Numbered from the stretch's first letter, positions 11,205 to 58,420 are shown. The stretch is DNA of 64,000 bases from Patescibacteria group bacterium (GCA_041660605.1 JBAZWB010000002.1:239940-303939), one strand, 5' to 3'. The notes: generated by a model from the sequence alone, not told the origin. Numbers and translations are program-made.

Positions 11205-11361
11205 TACATACCTCTCTTGTTTGAATTGTGAAAAATTTACTGTTTCTGTCTTTATTATGTTTATATTACTTTAACTAATGAGTGCCACGCTGTCAAACAG
11301 CAAAAACCACCAATACAAAAAATCCCTACTCGTTGTACGGAGTGGTATGGATGTATTTCTT

Positions 11362-11640
11362 TTATCAGTGGGCGCAGATGCCCCGCACCATCTCGTTTCA
11401 CTCGAGGTGCGGGATTTCGTCCCCTTCGACTTCGCTCAGGGTCCTCAAGACTCTATTCGTTTTTATCAAAACAAAAATCATCCCCCCACTTTACTTGTCC
11501 CCCGTAGCCCGAATGTAATGGGGGCGAAGGGGGATAAGAGTGGTGCTCTAACTCCCGACCCCGCATGCGGGGTCGAGGATCCCCGAAGTTGTCGAAATCA
11601 TAGATTTCGACAACTTCGGGACAACTGAGTCCCAATGCTC
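11362..11640 (-). pseudogene. Scrambled or disrupted copy of tRNA-Ile(UAU) (att-site scar)
   Basis: Exact repeats of the tRNA 3' end (CAGTGGGCGCAGATG) and D/anticodon-arm segment (ATAAGAGTGGTGCTCTAAC). They are separated by GC-rich inserts. Confidence 0.5.
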
Positions 11641-11706
11641 CGGTCGGAACTATGTATCTAGCCGCTACAAAAATTAAACAGACGACAAATATATTTCTTT
11701 TATCAG

Positions 11707-11780
11707 TGGGCGCAGATGGATTTGAACCATCGACCCCCACTTTATAAGAGTGGTGCTCTAACCAACTGAGCTATGCGCCC
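11707..11780 (-). tRNA. tRNA-Ile, anticodon UAU
   Basis: Cloverleaf: acceptor GGGCGCA/TGCGCCC, anticodon stem CCACT/AGTGG with loop CTTATAA, T-arm GATGG-TTCAAAT-CCATC. Confidence 0.7.
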
Positions 11781-11872
11781 ACTGATAAAACAAATGACAA
11801 TTTAACTTAAAAAACTTATCACAAAAACAGCCAGAAGGTCAACTCATGCCGACTTTAATGACATTATTGGGT

Positions 11873-23903: not shown

Positions 23904-24593
23904 ATGAAAGATTTTTCCAAACTGGAGAAAAAAATAAAAGTTAAATTTGCCAACCAGGATTTGCTCAAACAAGCGATGGTGCACCGTTCCTACCTGAACG
24001 AACACCCTAGCTTTAGTTTGGGGCACAACGAAAGGCTGGAATTCCTGGGTGATGCGGTGCTGGAACTGGTCGTTACCAGATACCTCTACCTGAACTACGA
24101 AAATCCCGAAGGCGAGCTGACTAACTGGCGCGCCAGCCTGGTGAATTCCAATATGCTGGCGGAGGTCGCCACCGAGTTGGAGCTGAATGAATTCCTGTAT
24201 CTCTCAAAAGGCGAGTCAAAAGACTCCAGCAGTAAAGCCCGTCAGTACATCCTGGCCAACTCCTTCGAAGCGCTGATCGGCTCAATCTACCTGGACCAGG
24301 GCTTGAATATCGTGGAAAAATTCATTCAACAGAATATCATCACCAAGCTGGATGAAATTCTGGACAAAAAGCTTTACCAGGACCCGAAGAGCAAATTTCA
24401 GGAGCATTCGCAGGATAAATTCGGCATCACGCCCTCCTATAGGGTTATTTCCGAAGCCGGACCGGATCACAATAAAAAATTCGTCATCGGCGTTTATCTG
24501 GACAAGGAACTGATTGCCAAAGGCCAGGGCTCATCCAAGCATGAAGCGCAGGTTGACGCCGCGGACAAAGGCCTGAAAGTGAAAGGGTGGTAA
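23904..24593 (+). CDS. rnc: Ribonuclease III
   Basis: NERLEFLGDAVL catalytic signature plus a C-terminal dsRBD. Confidence 0.9.
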   Translation: MKDFSKLEKKIKVKFANQDLLKQAMVHRSYLNEHPSFSLGHNERLEFLGDAVLELVVTRYLYLNYENPEGELTNWRASLVNSNMLAEVATELELNEFLYLSKGESKDSSSKARQYILANSFEALIGSIYLDQGLNIVEKFIQQNIITKLDEILDKKLYQDPKSKFQEHSQDKFGITPSYRVISEAGPDHNKKFVIGVYLDKELIAKGQGSSKHEAQVDAADKGLKVKGW

Positions 24594-43942: not shown

Positions 43943-44197
43943 AATCAAATAGAAATATACACAAAAGCCGTGTGGTACAAACCCCGCGGTTTTTGTTTTA
44001 TTGAATATAATAAATTAATTCTCCCTCTCTTGTGATGACGGAGATGAAGCCATTGACGTTACAATACGGTTTTTGATAGTCTTACGAACACGGGGGCAGT
44101 ATATCCCATCGTCTTGGGTAAGAAATAAAAAACGCTCATGTCCGGGAAATGGAGAATAAAATTATGTTTGATCCTACGAAGGGCGAATAGCCCGCTA

Positions 44198-44240
44198 GAA
44201 TGCGCATCGCGGCGCCTTATCCCGTGCGTATTCTTTTTTT
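44198..44240 (+). terminator. Rho-independent terminator inside the KH-trmD spacer
   Basis: GAATGCGCA...TGCGTATTC, followed by T7. Confidence 0.45.
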
Positions 44241-44575
44241 ATTACCCAGACCGCCCCCTTTGTGTCATCCTGAGGAGTGAGCGCAAGCGAACGACGTGAG
44301 AATCTCGCTATCTTCAGCACCTGGGGTTGCCACACCCTCACTGCGTTTGGGCTCGTAATAACAAAAGTGGGGCGGGGCTTCGCGAAGGCGAGTTTAATTA
44401 CTTTTCTGGGTGACCAGAAAAATTGCAAATATGATATACTGTAATCAAGTATTTATAAAATATCAAAGCAAGCTTTAAATATTAATCATCGCGAGGCCAC
44501 GGGCCGAGCGATACACCCTTTGCGGAAAGCGTTGGAAACCATCCGCCCATTGGCGGAGGGTTTCCGAAATAATCT

Positions 44576-45251: not shown

Positions 45252-45489
45252 ACATTATACCAATAATTGGTCGAAATAAAGGCTAATTTAACACTAAAAT
45301 ATAAGGAGAAACGCCTAGTGGGGATATAAAAACTAGCAAAAAGTTATCAAATAAAACATTTGATGTCCCGCTAAGCCGGGATTTTTTATCTCCTATATCG
45401 ACCAGTCATTGAGAACTTTAACAATCAGAAAGTGATAAGAAGAAACGTCAATTTCTTTTTGAAAGTTTTTTAAAACTTTCATTTTTTTC

Positions 45490-46987
<1,498 letters not shown>

Positions 46988-47290
46988 AAGGAGAACTTAA
47001 TTTCCTTTCGGGGAAATTATTGTAGGTCGATGATCAGATTTTATTATCTGATTTTGAAATAATTTTTGACGTTTCTTTCTTATCACCTTTTGGTTGTTAA
47101 ATAATATATACAAATCTACAGCCCAGTAAAATCATGAGTTTGATTTTTACCAAGATATTTAGTACAATATTGACAAACAGGCTGTAGTTTTTTTATTTAA
47201 TAAACAATATACAGGGGCGACTAGCTTCCACCTCCGTCCGCCTGGGGCGGACTTCGGCGGACACGCAGATGGTTATTAAAGCCCAGTGGT

Positions 47291-47367
47291 GGGCGACTAG
47301 CTCAGATGGTTAGAGCGCGTCACTGATAATGACGAGGTCTCAGGTTCGATTCCTGAGTCGCCCACCA
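47291..47367 (+). tRNA. tRNA-Ile (GAU) with encoded CCA
   Basis: Acceptor GGGCGAC/GTCGCCC, anticodon loop CTGATAA, T-arm GGTTCGATTCC. Confidence 0.85.
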
Positions 47368-47573
47368 CTGGGGTCTATAAAGCTTGCCTACCCCTCAGAG
47401 TTGAACAAAACAAGGCGAGCAGGGTTTAATGTCAGGTTCCCCCGCCACAATAAATTAAATGAACTAAAGTGGAGCGGGGTCCGCCTCCCATCGGGCCTGA
47501 GAGGCCTCAGGGCCTCGAACGGCTGGCGGAGATTCCTGAGTCGCCCATTTGAAAAAAACAATTCGCTCCAATA

Positions 47574-47897
47574 ATGGAAATAAATAAACTCCAAAAAACA
47601 TTGCGGGATTTGGCAGAAAAAAAGAACTGGGGCAATTCCCCCGCTGAAATAAATTTTGCTGAAAAAATTGCTCTCCTCCACGCAGAAGTTTCAGAAGCCC
47701 TGGAAGCTTACCGTAAGGGTAATTTTCAGGGCAAAGATGGCGTCGGTGAAGAACTTGCTGATATATTAATTCGAACCATCCATCTTGCCAGCATTTACGG
47801 GCTTGATCTGGAAAGAGAAATCAACAAAAAACTTAAAATAAATTCAGAAAGAAGCTGGGATAATGACCAGCTGCACATCGATAAAAAAAATTGCTAG
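47574..47897 (+). CDS. MazG-like nucleotide pyrophosphohydrolase (small all-alpha NTP-PPase)
   Basis: EVSEALEA...EELADIL... EExxE/D motifs typical of the MazG/dimeric dUTPase superfamily. Confidence 0.6.
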   Translation: MEINKLQKTLRDLAEKKNWGNSPAEINFAEKIALLHAEVSEALEAYRKGNFQGKDGVGEELADILIRTIHLASIYGLDLEREINKKLKINSERSWDNDQLHIDKKNC

Positions 47898-47938
47898 GAA
47901 TAATATAATTATTATTTTCAAATGCCGAAGATATTTGT

Positions 47939-48010
47939 GCCGAGGTAGCTCAGTGGTAGAGCGAAGGACTGAAAATCCTTGCGTCGCCAGTCCGATTCTG
48001 GCCCTCGGCA
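47939..48010 (+). tRNA. tRNA-Phe (GAA)
   Basis: Acceptor GCCGAGG/CCTCGGC, anticodon loop CTGAAAA, T-arm GCCAG-TCCGATT-CTGGC. Confidence 0.85.
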
Positions 48011-48035
48011 TTTGAGAATAATTTCGTGATTAAAA

Positions 48036-48190
48036 AATGCAGCTCAGTGGGCCGAAGCCACGAGTGAAGCAAACTGCTTTGCTTCACGAGGAGCTGAGGC
48101 GGGCGAGATGATACGGGAACCGCCATCGAGCCCCGGGAGAGCGAAGGACTGAAAATCCTTGCGTCGCCAGTCCGATTCTGGCTCTCGGCA
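48036..48190 (+). pseudogene. Disrupted second copy of tRNA-Phe with an 85-nt hairpin insert in the D region
   Basis: 48129–48190 reproduces the 3' two-thirds of tRNA-Phe with 1 mismatch. The 5' part (GCAGCTCAGTGG) is separated by a GC hairpin insert. Confidence 0.5.
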
Positions 48191-48497
48191 TAAGTGAAGC
48201 ATTAATAACCCAAACTGAAAATTTTACCCCGTACTTGACGCGAAGCGGCATAGTGCGGGGCCTTGCGTCGCCAGCATGCCCCACGAAGTTGAACGTAGCG
48301 AAACGTAGCGGGGGGGAGACCCGCCCCGCTGACTAGCGGGGTTCTTGAGAACAAATAATAAATCAAATGACGAAATCCCGCCGCATGGCGGGATGGCCCT
48401 CGACATCTTCAGGGGCTTGCTTTTGTTGTGGGATAAACTATACTATACTGAAACTATATTAGATAAACACTAAACTTGAGTATATATTTCCCCTTAT

Positions 48498-49331
48498 ATG
48501 ATTGAAAACTCAGAATATTTAAAGGAAGCGGCACAATCTTCGATGGATTTCTCAAAGATCCAAATCGATGAAATACTTAAAGCTCATAATACCGGACAGC
48601 CGATTGAATTTGAGTCATTTAGCCCATATATTGCGGACCATGACCTGGCTCATGGAGATATTCGATCTGGAGGCCTAACTAATGAGGAACAGATCGGATT
48701 ACAAATAAGTAAAACTTTACGGGAACAGCTACCGGAGGCGCGGATGGTTTCATTGTATGATGAATACAATACCAATGTTCCGGATAGTGCGGATCCATCC
48801 GGTCGACCCATGTCTGACGGCAAGCAAGTTGGATTGCCTGATGATGTAAAAAATAATTTCAAACAAGGCATTATCAGGGTTCTACGAGAAAACAATTTGA
48901 GCAGGGATGACGACTTGCTTATTTCAGAAAGCAGTAAAATTAAAGCAGCTCACACGCTTGAGCAACGGCTACGTGAACACGGCTTGGTCTTCGAACGTGA
49001 TGGTGCGGTATACTTCCGGAATCCAAATCCTGAAAATCCCGCTTATGCTGAAGTGCTCCTTCGATCAAAAAACGGACGGTGGATGTGCGAAGCGCTGGAT
49101 GCTTCAACCTACTTAGATCCAAAGAACCTGGATATAACACATATCGTTGCCCTCTCAAACCACTTCAAACCGCAGCAGGACAAGGTTTGGGAAATTTTGC
49201 GATCTCTCGGTATCCAGAACCGCAATTACCACAATATTTTCTATGACGAGACGCTACCACCAGAGGCTGTCGCTGAGGTGATTCGGGAAAAATTTATCAG
49301 GGCTGGACAGACATTTCAGGCGGCCGCGTAA
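48498..49331 (+). CDS. Hypothetical protein
   Basis: 277-aa ORF with no recognised motif. Confidence 0.45.
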   Translation: MIENSEYLKEAAQSSMDFSKIQIDEILKAHNTGQPIEFESFSPYIADHDLAHGDIRSGGLTNEEQIGLQISKTLREQLPEARMVSLYDEYNTNVPDSADPSGRPMSDGKQVGLPDDVKNNFKQGIIRVLRENNLSRDDDLLISESSKIKAAHTLEQRLREHGLVFERDGAVYFRNPNPENPAYAEVLLRSKNGRWMCEALDASTYLDPKNLDITHIVALSNHFKPQQDKVWEILRSLGIQNRNYHNIFYDETLPPEAVAEVIREKFIRAGQTFQAAA

Positions 49332-49423
49332 AGAACTTAAAGCTTGAAATTAAACAAAACCCGTGATACAGTATTATCACGTATTTTGGTAATATTTGAT
49401 AATTAACCGAGCTTATTTGCGCC

Positions 49424-50455
49424 ATGTATATCGTTGCTACTATCTCAAAAAATTCTTACCCGGCAGAAAAAATTGAAGAAATTCTGAAAGCCGGAGCAAC
49501 TATGCTGAGATTTAATTTTTCTCATGGCACACCGCAGGATCAGGCTGGCCATATACAAACCGCCAGGACTGTAATCGCGAAACTAGGGCTTGAAAAATCC
49601 GTTAAGATAATAGCTGATTTACCGGGCGACAAATTACGCCTGGGTACGTTCGAACCGATCCATTTCCCGATTAAAAAGGGACAGCTCGTAAAATTCGTAT
49701 TAGACTATAATTCAGATGATCCTTCTAAATTTATCCCCATTGATGCTGATAATATTTGCAAATATCTGAAAGCCGGCCAGCCTATTAGTGTCGGCGATGG
49801 CGATCCTGCTTTAATCATCACTGAAATCATTGATGAAAATACTTTTACCGCGCTGGTGCAAAATAATGGCGGTATTCAATCTATGAAAGGATTTAATATC
49901 GGGAGAGGGGTTGACGAACTAGACCATTTTACCAAGAAAACACTGGAAAGTATTGCCTATTTGCCCAAGATTAAACCAGATTTGATTGCCCTGTCCTTTG
50001 TTAATAATAGGGCTTATTTAAAAAAGGCAAAAAAATTGCTGGCTGAGCAATATCACTCAGATAAGTTACCACCCTTAGTGGCAAAACTGGAAACTCCTGA
50101 AGCAATTAAAAATCTTGACGAAATAGCTAAGGATTGCGATATTTTCATGGTTGCCCGGGGTGATCTGGCTATTACCGCGCCATATGAAATGCTCGGTATC
50201 TACCAGAAACAAATTGTACAGGCTGCCAAAAGAAATAATAAGCAGGTGATAGTTGCCACTCAGCTTTTAGAAAGTCTAATGGAAAGCCATACTCCGACCA
50301 GATCAGAAATATTGGATCTGACAAATATTGTTCTCGATGGTGCTGATGGCATCATGTTTGCTAAGGAAACTGGTTTGAGTCTGACGCCTGGCTATTCAGT
50401 GTCAATTGCAAAAAAAATAATTAATGCCGTCGAAAAGAATAGAGATAAAATATAA
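49424..50455 (+). CDS. Pyruvate kinase-like protein (barrel domain only, no C-terminal regulatory domain)
   Basis: RFNFSHG and MVARGDLAI PK signatures. Only 343 aa. Confidence 0.6.
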   Translation: MYIVATISKNSYPAEKIEEILKAGATMLRFNFSHGTPQDQAGHIQTARTVIAKLGLEKSVKIIADLPGDKLRLGTFEPIHFPIKKGQLVKFVLDYNSDDPSKFIPIDADNICKYLKAGQPISVGDGDPALIITEIIDENTFTALVQNNGGIQSMKGFNIGRGVDELDHFTKKTLESIAYLPKIKPDLIALSFVNNRAYLKKAKKLLAEQYHSDKLPPLVAKLETPEAIKNLDEIAKDCDIFMVARGDLAITAPYEMLGIYQKQIVQAAKRNNKQVIVATQLLESLMESHTPTRSEILDLTNIVLDGADGIMFAKETGLSLTPGYSVSIAKKIINAVEKNRDKI

Positions 50456-50754
50456 CGGGGTGTAGTTCAGTTGGCTAGAACGCTCGCTTCTTGCCCCGCC
50501 CCAGGTACAGGATTGCGCTCTTAATAAAAAATTATAGAGAAATATATTCAGGTCGGGGTGTAGTTCAGTTGGCTAGAACGCTCGCTTTGGGAGCGAGAGG
50601 TCCGCGGTTCGAGTCCGCGCACCCCGACCTGAATATGTTTTTAAAACCCTGGTGGCGGGGTGAAGGAGCGAGAGGTCCCCGGTTTCCCGCCACAAATATT
50701 TAATCTAATGTAGGCGGGACCCCGCCGAATGGCGGTGGCGAGTCCCTACCTGCC
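50456..50754 (+). pseudogene. Outer, disrupted tRNA-Pro copy enclosing the intact gene
   Basis: 5' half (50456–50491) and 3' half (GGAGCGAGAGGTCC ... CGCGCACCCCGACC at about 50651–50754) of tRNA-Pro. The intact tRNA and GC hairpins lie between them. Confidence 0.45.
50554..50627 (+). tRNA. tRNA-Pro (UGG)
   Basis: Acceptor CGGGGTG/CACCCCG, anticodon loop TTTGGGA, T-arm CGCGG-TTCGAGT-CCGCG. Confidence 0.85.
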
Positions 50755-50797
50755 AGTAGGCAGTCGCGCACCCCGACCACTCAATAAAACCAATAGT

Positions 50798-51124: not shown

Positions 51125-51222
51125 GTATAAATAACGCCGAGCCTACGGGTCTTGTGGGTCCCGAGGCGAGGCGTACCTAATAGGGAAAAGATGCAATGAA
51201 GGGAAACCGCAGGTGTCCCTTC

Positions 51223-51400
51223 ATAAACACGCGCGGGTATCGTATAACGGTATTACCTCAGCTTTCTCCCGAAAAATAAGGAGCGAAGCGACTATATTTT
51301 TCGGGATCCTCGCAACAAGATGGGCTTGTTCCACCCTCCTCATCGTTGCGGGACAAGCTGATGACAGGGGTTCTGCGCCATAGGTACACCCGCCTTTGGC
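51223..51400 (+). pseudogene. Disrupted copy of tRNA-Gly(UCC) with an 88-nt insert in the anticodon loop and a diverged T-arm
   Basis: 5' part identical to the intact gene through CCTCAGCTTTC. Then an insert, then AAGCTGATGACAGGGGTTC. Confidence 0.5.
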
Positions 51401-51455
51401 GGGGAACTCATTAAATAAAAAATTTATATAGTTAATTCCCATAGAGCGGGTATCG

Positions 51456-51519
51456 TATAACGGTATTACCTCAGCTTTCCAAGCTGATGACAGGGGTTCG
51501 ACTCCCCTTACCCGCTCCA
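51456..51519 (+). tRNA. tRNA-Gly (UCC) with encoded CCA
   Basis: Acceptor GCGGGTA/TACCCGC, anticodon loop TTTCCAA, T-arm AGGGG-TTCGACT-CCCCT. Confidence 0.85.
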
Positions 51520-51636
51520 TGGGAATTAAAACTTAAAAGCATCCTTACCCGCTCCAATATCAAACTTTCCGATTTTTTTGGCGGAATGCTATTCTGAAAT
51601 ATATTATAAAAATTTAAAATCTGATATAATCCATAT

Positions 51637-52687: not shown

Positions 52688-53039
52688 CCCAAAAACATAT
52701 CACATTATCGGAATGAGTCCCGGTAATAATTATTTCAAAGATGAAGAAGTTCATTATCTTTTGAAAACTGTCGTTGAGCGATATTCGGCGGCGGAAAAGC
52801 GAGGGCGGGAACTTAATAATATTTCAAGATCCTCACCCCGTCATTCGACGAGGTCCGCCTTTTGCGGTGACTCTCGAGATCAATTAATATAATCAAATGA
52901 CGAGATCCCGCCCTGGTGGCGGGACCCTTACCCGCTCCAACGGAAAATCAATTTAATAAGTTATCCCCAGTCAATCTCTTGACCGTTTTTTGATTATTAT
53001 TTATTATTATATCGTATTACGATATAGTATATATTTCCT

Positions 53040-56183: not shown

Positions 56184-56344
56184 TAATGCATAATCAAAAG
56201 CCTCGATTTATAAAGTCGGGGTTTTTGGAATGCTAAATACTTGATAAATACAGGCAATTCTGTTATGATTTGAATATGTAGATTTAAAATCTGCTGTTTT
56301 ATTAACGAAACCCAGGACGAAAATATAATATAATTATTGTCTTG

Positions 56345-56460
56345 GCCAGGTAGCCCCGCCCGCCTTGCTCCGCAACGCGGAGCGGGCGTGGCAAGCCCCC
56401 GCCAGTAGGCGGGGTAAAATCCAGGCAGTGGTCTGTCCCGCCAAGGGGCGGGACCCCGCA
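56345..56460 (+). pseudogene. Disrupted copy of tRNA-Cys with GC hairpin inserts in the D loop and anticodon loop
   Basis: GGCCAGGTAGCC, a 68-nt insert, AGGCAGTGGTCTG, an insert. All collinear with the intact tRNA-Cys. Confidence 0.5.
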
Positions 56461-56523
56461 ATACATTAGAAAAAATATAAGAGTGCGGGACAAAACCAAA
56501 ATATACGGCACCCTGAAAGTAAT

Positions 56524-56598: not shown

Positions 56599-56713
56599 GC
56601 CAAATTTGTTGGTTTTAAAAACTAAAATGACCGCCGAGCCTCGACTTCACGTCGGGCGAGGCAAACAAATTAGGGAAAAAGAAGTAATGAGGAAAAAACC
56701 GTAGGTTGTTTCC

Positions 56714-58252
56714 TCATAGCCACGCGCGGGGGTAGTTCAGTGGTAGAACGCTTCCTTGCCAAGGAAGAGGTCGCGGGTTCAAGTCCCGTTCCCCGCTCCA
56801 ATCGGAAAATTTGAATTTTTCAGCGGCGCAAAGCCACTGATTAGATAATGAAATTAGGGCTTTCCCGCCAACGAGGCGGAAGTTCGAGCCAATTTTTTGT
56901 ATAAAATTTCTTTTTGCTTCTAAATTTTCTTGTTTTGATGTAAAAGGGGCTTGGTGAGCGTCTAATATCCATTTTCTGAAGAGTTCGAGCCGAGCGTCGC
57001 CCTTATTCTTAAAACTATCCAGTAATTCCTTAATTTCAACCAGCCGGTTGACGATTTTTTGTTTGGCTTTGTCAAATACCTCTTTAGAAATTCCTTGGTC
57101 TAATCTCTCATCAAGCAGTAGCAATAGTTTTTCCTCTAATTTAGCTTGCTCGCCTTTTAACGCCTGAATTTCCTCGCCATGCTTAGTTGTTGCTTCTTTG
57201 ATTTCCCCGTCAACCTTAATTAACATTTTGTCTTTCCAATCATCAGGCAGGGCGACGCTCTCAATGGTTTTATTGATCTGGCTGACCAAGTGCCTTTCTT
57301 CAATGAACTTCTGCGAGCAAACCACATTTTTCTTGGTACAGCGATAATAAACATATTTCAACCCTGAAGGTTTTTTCTTTCTTTCGGCAGTTACCATGCG
57401 TCCGCACTCACCACAGGTGAATACGCCCCGGAATGCGAAAGGCAGAAGGTCTTTTTTAACCCTGGTCTTTCGTTTGGCCGAGTGAACCTTCTGCACTTCG
57501 TCAAATAACTGCTTGGTAATTATCGGCTGGTGACTGCCCTGGTACATTTCGCCCTTGTGCAAAAATACGCCGTAATAAAACGGATTGGTCAGCATGTCTA
57601 CTAGCTTGGAAATGACGATTTGCTTATTTGTCCTACGGCTCACCAAGCCCAGCGAAAGCGACAGCTTCTGCAGTGAATAAATCGTGTGATTGCCCCCGGC
57701 ATACGCCTCAAAGAGCTTTTTGACTATCTGCCAGCGCTCCGGGTCTTTGATGATGGTGTGGTGCCGTAATTCGTTCAGATAGCCGACAGGCGCGAGCGCT
57801 GGCCATTCGCCCCGGCGGAGCTTTTGGCGTATGCCGCGTTTGATATTTTCGCATAAGTTATCAATGTAGTATTTGCTCTGGCCAAAAGCGATATTAAGCA
57901 TGAATTTTCCCTGTGGCGTGGCATCAAACCAAAATGTAGGAAATTTTAAACCGCCAATCTTGCCAGTATCCACCATAAAAATGATTTTTCCGCCGTCAAT
58001 GCTGTTTCTGGCCAATCTGTCCGGATGCCACGCCAAAATGCCCATAGGGCCATTTTCTTCTATGCGCTTGATCATTTTATTAAAAAGAGGACGACCGGGC
58101 ACTTTGGCCGTCTTGCTTTCTATGTATTCGTCAATTACTTCTAAATTTTCCTTAATCGCAAATTCTCTTAATTCCGTTATTTGCGATTCAATGGATAAAA
58201 CCTGCCGGTCGTCCTCGTCAGTTGATTTCCTGGCGTAGATTACATATTTCAT
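56714..58252 (-). CDS. Large serine recombinase (resolvase/invertase N-domain, recombinase domain, zinc ribbon)
   Basis: N-terminal YARKSTDEDDRQVLSIESQ with the catalytic Ser. Downstream recombinase domain with CGECG...YYRC zinc ribbon. The 3'-terminal roughly 170 nt runs through IR-A and antisense tRNA-Gly, so the true C-terminus is uncertain. Confidence 0.85.
   Translation of the reverse strand: MKYVIYARKSTDEDDRQVLSIESQITELREFAIKENLEVIDEYIESKTAKVPGRPLFNKMIKRIEENGPMGILAWHPDRLARNSIDGGKIIFMVDTGKIGGLKFPTFWFDATPQGKFMLNIAFGQSKYYIDNLCENIKRGIRQKLRRGEWPALAPVGYLNELRHHTIIKDPERWQIVKKLFEAYAGGNHTIYSLQKLSLSLGLVSRRTNKQIVISKLVDMLTNPFYYGVFLHKGEMYQGSHQPIITKQLFDEVQKVHSAKRKTRVKKDLLPFAFRGVFTCGECGRMVTAERKKKPSGLKYVYYRCTKKNVVCSQKFIEERHLVSQINKTIESVALPDDWKDKMLIKVDGEIKEATTKHGEEIQALKGEQAKLEEKLLLLLDERLDQGISKEVFDKAKQKIVNRLVEIKELLDSFKNKGDARLELFRKWILDAHQAPFTSKQENLEAKRNFIQKIGSNFRLVGGKALISLSNQWLCAAEKFKFSDWSGERDLNPRPLPWQGSVLPLNYPRAWL
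56726..56800 (+). tRNA. tRNA-Gly (GCC) with encoded CCA; integration target
   Basis: Acceptor GCGGGGG/TCCCCGC, anticodon loop TTGCCAA, T-arm GCGGG-TTCAAGT-CCCGT. Confidence 0.85.
56795..56886. repeat. IR-A, left copy (92 bp, perfect)
   Basis: Reverse complement equals 58329–58420. Confidence 0.9.
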
Positions 58253-58328: not shown

Positions 58329-58420
58329 CGAACTTCCGCCTCGTTGGCGGGAAAGCCCTAATTTCATTATCTAATCAGTGGCTTTGCGCCGCTGAAAAAT
58401 TCAAATTTTCCGATTGGAGC
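58329..58420. repeat. IR-A, right copy (92 bp)
   Basis: Perfect inverted match to 56795–56886. Confidence 0.9.

Follow-up and report, generated by a model that had tools for sequence, protein, structure and literature searches.

A tRNA-Pro gene nested in a broken tRNA-Pro copy, and insertion-riddled partial copies at neighbouring tRNA loci, in a Patescibacteria genome

Introduction

Few bacterial loci are as stable and compact as tRNA genes, and the genomes of the candidate phyla radiation (CPR) are small and streamlined. How does a tRNA gene in such a genome come to lie in pieces around a complete gene of the same specificity? The question is raised by 64,000 nucleotides from a Patescibacteria group bacterium (GCA_041660605.1, JBAZWB010000002.1:239940-303939); this whole stretch is called the window, and positions are counted from its first letter. 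At 50456-50778 an intact tRNA-Pro gene is enclosed by the pieces of a second, interrupted tRNA-Pro copy. The original prediction for this locus considered a tRNA-sized intron that is itself a tRNA, and named a history of replacement by insertion as the alternative. The evidence presented here favours the alternative. We propose, with a probability of roughly 0.6, that the ancestral tRNA-Pro gene was replaced by insertion, that the broken copy then served as a landing pad for palindromic elements aimed at loops, and that the inner gene is the one that works.

Results

Anatomy of the nested tRNA-Pro locus

The inner tRNA-Pro(UGG) gene, presumed to be the working one, was called intact on the plus strand at 50554-50629 by ARAGORN and at 50554-50627 by Rfam (RF00005, 68.2 bits). 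It ends in ACC, and its CCA end is not fully encoded. The pieces of the outer copy, all on the plus strand, were located by repeat finding, BLAST and spliced alignment, which together with the two gene calls confirmed the nesting that had been predicted. The first piece (50456-50489) corresponds to nucleotides 1-34, namely the 5' strand of the acceptor stem, the D arm, the 5' strand of the anticodon stem and U32-U33. It is identical to the inner gene at 34/34 positions (blastn-short E=1.5e-14) and, as had been noticed, starts directly behind the stop codon of the pyruvate kinase (PF00224) gene; it had been drawn slightly too long, as nucleotides 1-36 at 50456-50491. The second piece (50665-50684, nucleotides 37-56) comprises G36-A38, the 3' strand of the anticodon stem, the variable loop, the 5' strand of the T stem and TT. 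It matches the inner gene at 19 of 20 positions, and the single substitution, G to C at 50679, breaks one base pair of the T stem. The micro-piece CGAGTCC (50739-50745, nucleotides 57-63), recovered by spliced alignment, completes the T loop and begins the 3' strand of the T stem. The last piece (50766-50778, nucleotides 64-76) supplies the rest of the T stem, the 3' strand of the acceptor stem and ACC; the 3' end is identical at 14/14 positions when the ambiguous C at 50765 is counted, and it pairs with 50456-50462 in the predicted fold. In spliced alignment 74 of the 76 nucleotides of tRNA-Pro are retained, in order. The two that are lost are the anticodon bases T34 and G35, at the break between U33 and G36. 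A matching 3' half does recur downstream as predicted, at 50665-50778 and not at about 50651-50754, coordinates that were 14-24 nt too low; an end of the nest at 50760 omitted the last outer exon.

Three insertions interrupt the outer copy, one of 175 bp in the anticodon loop and two, of 54 nt and 20 nt, in the T arm. The first of these consists of a 64-nt left part (X, 50490-50553), the inner gene, and a 35-nt right part (Y, 50630-50664). X carries a GC-rich arm, CCCCGCCCCAGG (50494-50505), which is complementary to the arm CCTGGTGGCGGGG of Y (50648-50660), so that the predicted complementary arms around the inner gene were found; the ends of X and Y are complementary at 12 of 13 nt. X also holds an AT-rich, promoter-like stretch (50521-50548) and a leader (50540-50553) that pairs with the trailer in Y, and this second helix (50540-50560 with 50620-50640) lengthens the inner acceptor stem. 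A conserved promoter-like motif upstream of the nested tRNAs was considered as well; the sequences are AT-rich and weakly conserved, and the motif was kept as a lead only. What had been described as a single 85-nt hairpin in the outer T loop proved to be two insertions separated by CGAGTCC. Z1 (50685-50738, 54 nt) is a GC-rich palindromic element of two hairpins, situated in the T loop between positions 55 and 56. Z2 (50746-50765, 20 nt) contains the small palindrome CCTACCTGCCAGTAGG and has the direct repeat AGTC (4 nt) on its two sides; its boundary could be shifted by 1 nt.

Folding, which the original prediction had recommended, gave a cloverleaf within a cloverleaf. The 336 nt at 50450-50785 fold at -159 kcal/mol (z=-7.75) with the outer acceptor stem closed, and in this fold, as in the folds of the other composite loci described below, an extended helix stands in place of a structural-RNA loop. 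An independent metagenome-assembled genome (MAG) at NCBI, GCA_041665905.1, is identical across 5.3 kb, including the nest.

Partial copies at other tRNA loci in the window

Seven tRNA genes were called in the window by ARAGORN, with Rfam in agreement, and all seven intact genes are uninterrupted. We read each tRNA locus and aligned each tRNA to the 64-kb window by short-word BLAST and spliced alignment. Six of the seven (Ile-GAT, Phe, Pro, Gly-TCC, Cys and Ile-TAT) proved to have cognate, insertion-riddled partial copies, nested at four loci and in tandem at two.

Among the nested loci, the outer tRNA-Gly(TCC) has the architecture of the outer tRNA-Pro, and these two near-perfect copies stand at one end of a series that reaches to heavily decayed ones. 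Its pieces lie at 51233-51266, 51354-51373 and 51543-51556. The first two are separated by an 87-nt anticodon-loop insert, which is clean, its excision restoring the loop exactly; the last two are separated by a T-loop insert that contains the intact gene (51446-51519), and 6 nt of the T loop are missing. A third tRNA-Gly(TCC) copy, consisting of the last 15 nt only, lies 1.4 kb downstream (52925-52939). The outer tRNA-Ile(GAT), 3' of the 16S gene, is reduced to pieces at 47215-47226, 47266-47275 and 47531-47547, with an insert in the D arm and a 91-nt insert in the T loop. At tRNA-Cys (56344-56523) nucleotides 1-12 (56344-56355) and 21-33 (56423-56435) are present upstream of the intact gene with GC hairpin inserts, and the 3' half is absent.

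The two tandem loci carry their partial copies downstream of the intact gene. Copy 2 of tRNA-Phe (48041-48050 plus 48138-48191) is 98% identical to the gene, has an 87-nt insert in the D loop and scores 28.9 bits in Rfam, just under the threshold. Copy 3 (48261-48274 plus 48394-48406) is heavily decayed, so that across these copies (48039-48406) decay grows with distance from the intact gene. The tRNA-Ile(TAT) copy (11354-11718, minus strand) has three insertions, and the inserted block of about 311 nt is enclosed by two direct copies of a 27-nt repeat (11718-11692 and 11380-11354) made up of the tRNA 3' end and 14 nt of trailer, an arrangement like that of attachment (att) sites. A simple tandem duplication was rejected here, the shared part of the trailer being 14 nt and not the whole spacer.

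All the interruptions that could be recognised fall within a loop or at its margin: at 12/13, 18/19 and 19/20 in the D loop, at 33-37 in the anticodon loop, and at 55-57 and 61-63 in the T loop and stem. The pattern at six of seven tRNAs points to DNA insertions aimed at the loops of tRNA genes and not to an intron.

In four of the seven intact tRNAs the leader and trailer pair and add 9-14 bp to the acceptor stem (Pro, 50540-50640; Gly-TCC, 51432-51533; Ile-GAT, 47282-47376; Ile-TAT, 11696-11790). Such an extension sequesters the discriminator base and the CCA end, which is unusual for bacterial tRNA precursors.

Several inserts belong to one family of palindromic repeats

The inserts are GC-rich, non-coding palindromes of 20-175 nt in a genome of 44% GC, and their ends usually read (T/C)CCCG...CGGG(A/G). 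Hairpins of the form CCGCC-N3-12-GGCGG were observed 13 times against 0.49 expected; seven of these hairpins fall in the tRNA composites, and another two belong to the inverted repeats of the recombinase element described below. In pairwise alignment with shuffling, Z1 proved related to two other inserts: that in the anticodon loop of the tRNA-Cys copy (56436-56491, z=15), which it matches as reverse complement, and that in the T loop of the tRNA-Ile(GAT) copy (z=7.9), which it matches in direct orientation. The insert in tRNA-Phe copy 3 matches, with its right end, the sequence that precedes the distant Gly fragment (z=13.6), where a hairpin and a 22-nt motif, nearly identical to that of the Phe copy, were found (region 52891-52940). 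In total the family has three strong and two weak members in the window. They occur in both orientations, the Cys copy being inverted relative to the Pro copy. A profile of three members, searched with nhmmer, matched only tRNA composites within the 64 kb and no member at the relatives' loci.

The right arm of the Pro cassette contains a 13-nt sequence, CCCTGGTGGCGGG, that is identical to the small hairpin at 52911-52923 beside the tRNA-Gly fragment. This identity suggests that the large inserts may be small hairpins with extra sequence in their loops. The inserts are comparable to miniature inverted-repeat transposable elements (MITEs) and repetitive extragenic palindromic (REP) sequences, in that they are short and non-coding, have complementary ends and occur as multiple related copies in both orientations. 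Neither the 175-bp nor the 54-nt and 20-nt inserts have coding capacity, no integrase remnant was seen in or beside inserts, and no Rfam family matched them at gathering scores or at E<=5.

Relatives and the original copy

The original prediction had also pointed to related genomes, where simple tRNA-Pro genes without flanking half-copies would speak against it, and this comparison gave a divided answer. Scans of genomes and metagenomes and a protein search, anchored on the neighbouring pyruvate kinase, yielded informative orthologous loci in L001 and L006 (two GW2011 Parcubacteria) and in L022 only; the nearest kinase homologue is 62% identical, and little of the synteny is left. In L022 the tRNA-Pro is plain and belongs to a compact Ile-Met-Phe-Pro cluster that is free of fragments. 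In L001 and L006, whose kinases are 56-59% identical, an intact tRNA-Pro follows the kinase gene at the place where the outer half now sits in the window; the only further copy is of its 3' end, 14 nt of which recur 113 nt downstream, beyond GC-rich hairpins. The tRNA-Gly(TCC) of both genomes has an 18-nt repeat of the same kind. In L001 (1-170 and 7119-7246) each of these two genes is followed by a GC-rich structured spacer of 110-150 nt, which contains an inverted copy of the T loop and T stem and then, directly repeated, the final 14-18 nt of the tRNA.

A composite resembling those of the window was found in a distant CPR genome, L023, at 11612-11712 upstream of an intact tRNA-Cys gene. In it the first 12 nt of the tRNA are followed by two GC hairpins, placed at 12/13 as in the window, then by a further 7 nt and a spacer that leads to the intact gene. 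The process is therefore lineage-restricted and not confined to one genome.

Judged from sequence, the outer copies are the originals, because the outer tRNA-Pro holds the ancestral place beside the kinase and because an upstream element of tRNA-Gly precedes the outer and not the inner copy. This conserved element of about 100 nt lies upstream of the intact tRNA-Gly(GCC) (56626-56725) and of the outer tRNA-Gly(TCC) (51128-51232). The two occurrences have in common the motif GCCGAGCC...GGCGAGGC as well as a hairpin whose differences are compensatory (ATGAAGGGA...TCCCTTCAT in one, ATGAGGAAA...TTCCTCAT in the other); the element had no match in Rfam.

Weak resemblances were seen between the tail of X and the 3' end of the kinase gene (p=0.014), between Y and the start of the downstream gene (p=0.016), and between the inner trailer of Ile-GAT and the outer downstream flank (p=0.034), in each case in AT-rich sequence. 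They offer a lead, to be treated as such, that the inner cassettes might carry diverged copies of the flanks of their own locus. A simple tandem duplication was rejected for the Pro locus, X not being a straight copy of the upstream flank.

RNA-level or DNA-level events

The nest could be a single precursor from which the inner tRNA is cut out as an intervening sequence, the outer halves being rejoined or left as a second, nicked tRNA-Pro. The nested fold with its closed outer acceptor stem agrees with this reading, as do the restriction of the inserts to loops, the clean anticodon-loop insert of Gly(TCC) and the RNase III gene in the window (23904-24593). ARAGORN moreover still calls the joined outer Pro exons tRNA-Pro(tgg), with a 4-bp anticodon stem, but this call is a trivial consequence of the deletion, TTTGGGA minus TG leaving TTGGA, and the joined Gly(TCC) exons, which lack the 6 nt of the T loop, give no tRNA. 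Excision of the 175-bp insert does not restore a complete tRNA, bases 34-35 (TG) being absent on both sides, and the T-stem pair would still be broken. The break does lie in the anticodon loop, as predicted, but at U33/G36 with two bases lost and not at the classic intron position 37/38. No group I or other intron family was hit in Rfam anywhere in the window at gathering scores or E<=5. A bulge-helix-bulge was not seen at the exon/insert junctions, where the predicted fold has a continuous 10+13-bp helix with single-base bulges, and no gene for a splicing endonuclease or ligase was found within the 64 kb. RNase III, for its part, cleaves the intervening sequences of rRNA without religation (PMC11270868). 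The composites fold about equally well on both strands, the sense strand has no excess of G-U pairs (34 of 637 there, 47 of 662 on the other), and members of the insert family are found in either orientation. Decay is visible in comparable copies elsewhere in the window, and relatives have plain genes. An intron that is itself a tRNA is therefore very improbable. A selected scaffold, in which the outer pieces and GC helices are kept as processing stems or as protection for the inner pre-tRNA, much as the RNase III stems of rRNA operons are, is somewhat less remote though still unlikely. In its favour are the leader-trailer helices on four tRNAs, the very stable fold, the near-perfect state of the outer pieces, the RNase III gene, the GC-rich structured spacers with 3' tRNA repeats that trail tRNA-Pro and tRNA-Gly in L001, unrelated in sequence, and the outer Cys fragment of L023, which covaries with its own tRNA. 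The composites vary greatly in completeness, however, several being without one acceptor strand; their helices are strand-symmetric, and the same element is also found inverted; relatives (L022 and L030-L032) do without any such structure; and a helix that sequesters the 5' leader together with the 3' end would be expected to impede RNase P and not to assist it. Events at the level of DNA are favoured over a design at the level of RNA because of the missing Rfam matches and bulge-helix-bulge, the two orientations, the strand-symmetric folds, the decay series and the failure of the Gly exons to give a tRNA.

If the events were at the DNA level, they might have been serial integrations by integrases, with at least two elements entering the anticodon and T loops, leaving attL/attR duplications and decaying to stubs of 35-64 nt. 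Direct repeats do lie on both sides of the intact tRNA-Pro, in a nest and not as an intact gene with a single fragment, and att-like repeats are clear at Ile-TAT (the 27-nt repeat flanking about 311 nt), at Gly(TCC) (the 15-nt 3' repeat 1.4 kb away) and in L001 (the 14-18-nt repeats, which run from the T loop onward), those at Ile-TAT and in L001 being single-sided. In the window, as in four other CPR genomes, tRNA-Gly(GCC) is occupied by a large serine recombinase element, and partial tRNAs that successive integrations and degenerated elements have left scattered are documented in the islands of streamlined genomes (bioRxiv 10.1101/2020.12.28.424599; PMC9897764). Yet the Pro nest would require one normal and one mirror-image event in the same loop, two independent elements do not predict complementary ends of X and Y, the insert neighbourhoods are without an integrase remnant, and junction positions vary within loops. 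Conservative recombination is also contradicted by the two bases lost at the Pro anticodon loop and the six at the Gly-TCC T loop, the other junctions being clean. A conservative model with a two-base overlap, as for serine recombinases, fits the Pro junctions only with assumed extra 2-nt insertions on both sides and was set aside, and scans of viral contigs for an attP, using the right-end motif and tRNA 3' ends, returned chance matches or ordinary phage tRNA genes. Serial integration is accordingly doubtful, though it deserves more weight than either of the RNA-level readings. As for the assembly, a false join through the 34-nt repeat in metagenome data has some backing in a short-read contig, L005 (SRR18595301), which is identical to window 48153-50489, passes from the pyruvate kinase gene through nucleotides 1-34 and goes on into 15 nt of uninterrupted, inner-type continuation (TGGGAGCGAGAGGTC), where it stops. 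L005 was assembled in a k=31 graph, where clipping can remove a 98-nt loop, and it fits a collapsed repeat as well as a real un-nested allele in another sample; it was therefore not used as evidence for such an allele. The name of the source contig (k141_...) implies 141-mers, which would span every junction, the independent MAG has the same 5.3 kb, and five other tRNAs show the same architecture. The chance that the nest is an artefact is accordingly slight in the extreme.

Genomic neighbourhood and the serine recombinase

Flanking proteins and related loci assign the window to a Parcubacteria/Patescibacteria genome of the CPR, on a source contig of 960 kb. The window is core chromosome, with the 16S rRNA gene and genes for ClpP, RNase Y, FtsH, GyrA, NusB, RNase III, pyrimidine biosynthesis, SMC and TrmD. 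The stretch 45484-48011 runs from the 16S rRNA gene through tRNA-Ile(GAT) and a MazG-like gene to tRNA-Phe. tRNA-Ala and 23S genes are absent from the 64 kb, and with no 23S gene there the rRNA genes appear to be unlinked. Between a KhpA-like gene and trmD, a frequent site of rimM, about 630 nt (43943-44575) have no convincing open reading frame; they include GC-rich structured segments, among them a hairpin at 44543, and had no Rfam match.

The only recombinase found in the window lies beside the remaining tRNA, Gly(GCC). Its large serine recombinase gene (58252 to about 56790, minus strand), with Resolvase, Recombinase and Zn-ribbon domains, converges on the tRNA gene and overlaps its 3' end. 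Perfect 92-nt inverted repeats (56795-56886 and 58329-58420) bracket the recombinase, with a hairpin in the style of the inserts within them. Homologues 68-83% identical are located at the same tRNA in four other CPR genomes (L023 and L030-L032). This identity, compared with 62% for the nearest kinase homologue, suggests that the recombinase may have spread horizontally. On its far side (to about 63400) are a helix-turn-helix gene, a HATPase_c_3 protein and another protein predicted to contain a pPIWI-associated nuclease domain, and the region is probably a CPR-wide integrative element with defence-type cargo. A link between this recombinase and the composites was considered and rejected: among the four other genomes only L023 has a tRNA-Cys composite, and no consistent association was found.

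Discussion

Comparison with known systems

Palindromic repeats of the REP and MITE type are known in bacteria, for example REP sequences and bacterial interspersed mosaic elements (BIMEs) and the Correia elements. The inserts described here resemble them as short, non-coding, GC-rich palindromes with related copies in both orientations, as possible RNase III substrates when transcribed, and in the way that larger inserts look like small hairpins with extra loop sequence. They differ in that the copies in the window are confined to the loops of tRNA pseudo-copies instead of being spread between genes, that target duplication is inconsistent, that no REP-associated tyrosine transposase (RAYT) or other transposase was seen in the window, and that members seem to carry tRNA cargo.

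In archaea, tRNA genes may have multiple or non-canonical introns, and split tRNAs and transposing tRNA introns occur as well (PMC4090602, as summarised in PMC10714607). The composites share with these up to three interruptions, in the D arm, anticodon loop and T arm, and related sequences across different tRNAs; unlike them they are bacterial, have no bulge-helix-bulge and incomplete exons, and are always accompanied by an intact cognate. Group I introns do interrupt the anticodon loops of bacterial tRNA genes (PMC3984707), as the outer tRNA-Pro is interrupted, but here there is no ribozyme core or Rfam hit, the 175 nt are mostly tRNA, and the exons do not restore the loop. Closer parallels are offered by CPR rRNA genes, which have short unclassified insertion sequences as well as intervening sequences cleaved by RNase III (PMC11270868). 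Those insertions come from the same lineage and are likewise helical, placed at the tips or bases of stem-loops, without an open reading frame and of neither group I nor group II; in a tRNA, however, a cut without religation destroys function, and an intact spare copy is always present. The other close parallel is the partial tRNA copies that integrative elements leave as attL/attR, among them those scattered by serial integrations in the tycheposon islands of Prochlorococcus (PMC9897764; bioRxiv 10.1101/2020.12.28.424599). As there, an intact tRNA stands beside direct-repeat fragments of itself, breaks lie in the anticodon and T loops, decayed fragments are layered (Phe, Ile-TAT and the distant Gly), and a recombinase element occupies a neighbouring tRNA. 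In contrast to those systems, fragments lie on both sides to form a nest, the 175-bp "element" carries a whole tRNA and has mutually complementary ends, the target has lost two bases, and tiny palindromic inserts sit in the dead copy. The locus is closest to these two, the integrative-element fragments and the CPR rRNA insertions, and lacks defining features of each.

Proposed replacement by insertion

Replacement of the ancestral tRNA-Pro by insertion, followed by capture of loop-targeting palindromic elements, is the reading that we prefer. Transcription of the inner gene would probably begin in the AT-rich stretch that immediately precedes it, or reach it as read-through of the kinase gene, and the tRNA would be released by ordinary end-processing, possibly aided by RNase III, for which the long flanking helices could be substrates if transcribed. 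The outer pieces would be a relic that is never rejoined. The locus would then be one case of a lineage-specific process in which small palindromic elements, or recombination, hit the loop-coding positions of tRNA genes. If the tRNA genes are single-copy, as we assume is probable in so small a genome, a hit on a working gene would be survivable only where an intact cognate copy arrives with the insertion or already adjoins, and the dead copy would be free to gather further insertions without cargo. Such a requirement for survival would explain why every nest is cognate, why inserts without cargo are found only in broken copies, and why the seven intact genes are uninterrupted.

Several observations weigh against this proposal. 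The outer pieces show about 2 mismatches in about 320 nt over all composites, yet some 14 insertions have accumulated in them. To reconcile near-perfect pieces with so many insertions, the process would have to be very recent or very active, or else gene conversion, or selection on the pieces, would have to be invoked. The insertions are all in or next to loops, a pattern that selection for a foldable RNA could also give. The outer Cys fragment of L023 matches its own tRNA, which differs from that of the window at 2 of 12 positions, and it reflects either recurrent formation at the same sites or concerted evolution with the gene. There is no consistent target-site duplication among the inserts, the 4-nt AGTC repeat being confined to Z2 and the others having none or 1 nt, and no transposase or tyrosine integrase was found encoded in the 64-kb window. 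Finally, the model leaves unexplained how a cassette acquired a cognate tRNA.

A bolder idea, to which we give a low probability, is that CPR bacteria harbour a palindromic-element family specialised on tRNA loop-coding positions, some members of which carry a cognate tRNA, or else that these are the first bacterial tRNA intervening sequences, selected as RNA. In the former case the element would act as an addiction-type "tRNA replacement cassette": its insertion would kill presumably the only host copy and yet supply the replacement, so that the element would become indispensable.

Implications for CPR bacteria

Our literature searches for interrupted, fragmented or pseudo-tRNA genes, whether of CPR or of bacteria generally, turned up no account for this lineage and no earlier description of such a process. 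The loci described here indicate an active process of tRNA-directed insertion or recombination in this lineage. They affect the annotation of CPR tRNAs, in which half-copies and interrupted copies can be miscalled, and they bear on how essential single-copy genes survive attack by mobile DNA. The process may also connect with the many unexplained insertions in CPR rRNA genes, and if the elements prove to be mobile with cognate tRNA cargo, they would represent a new kind of selfish cassette.

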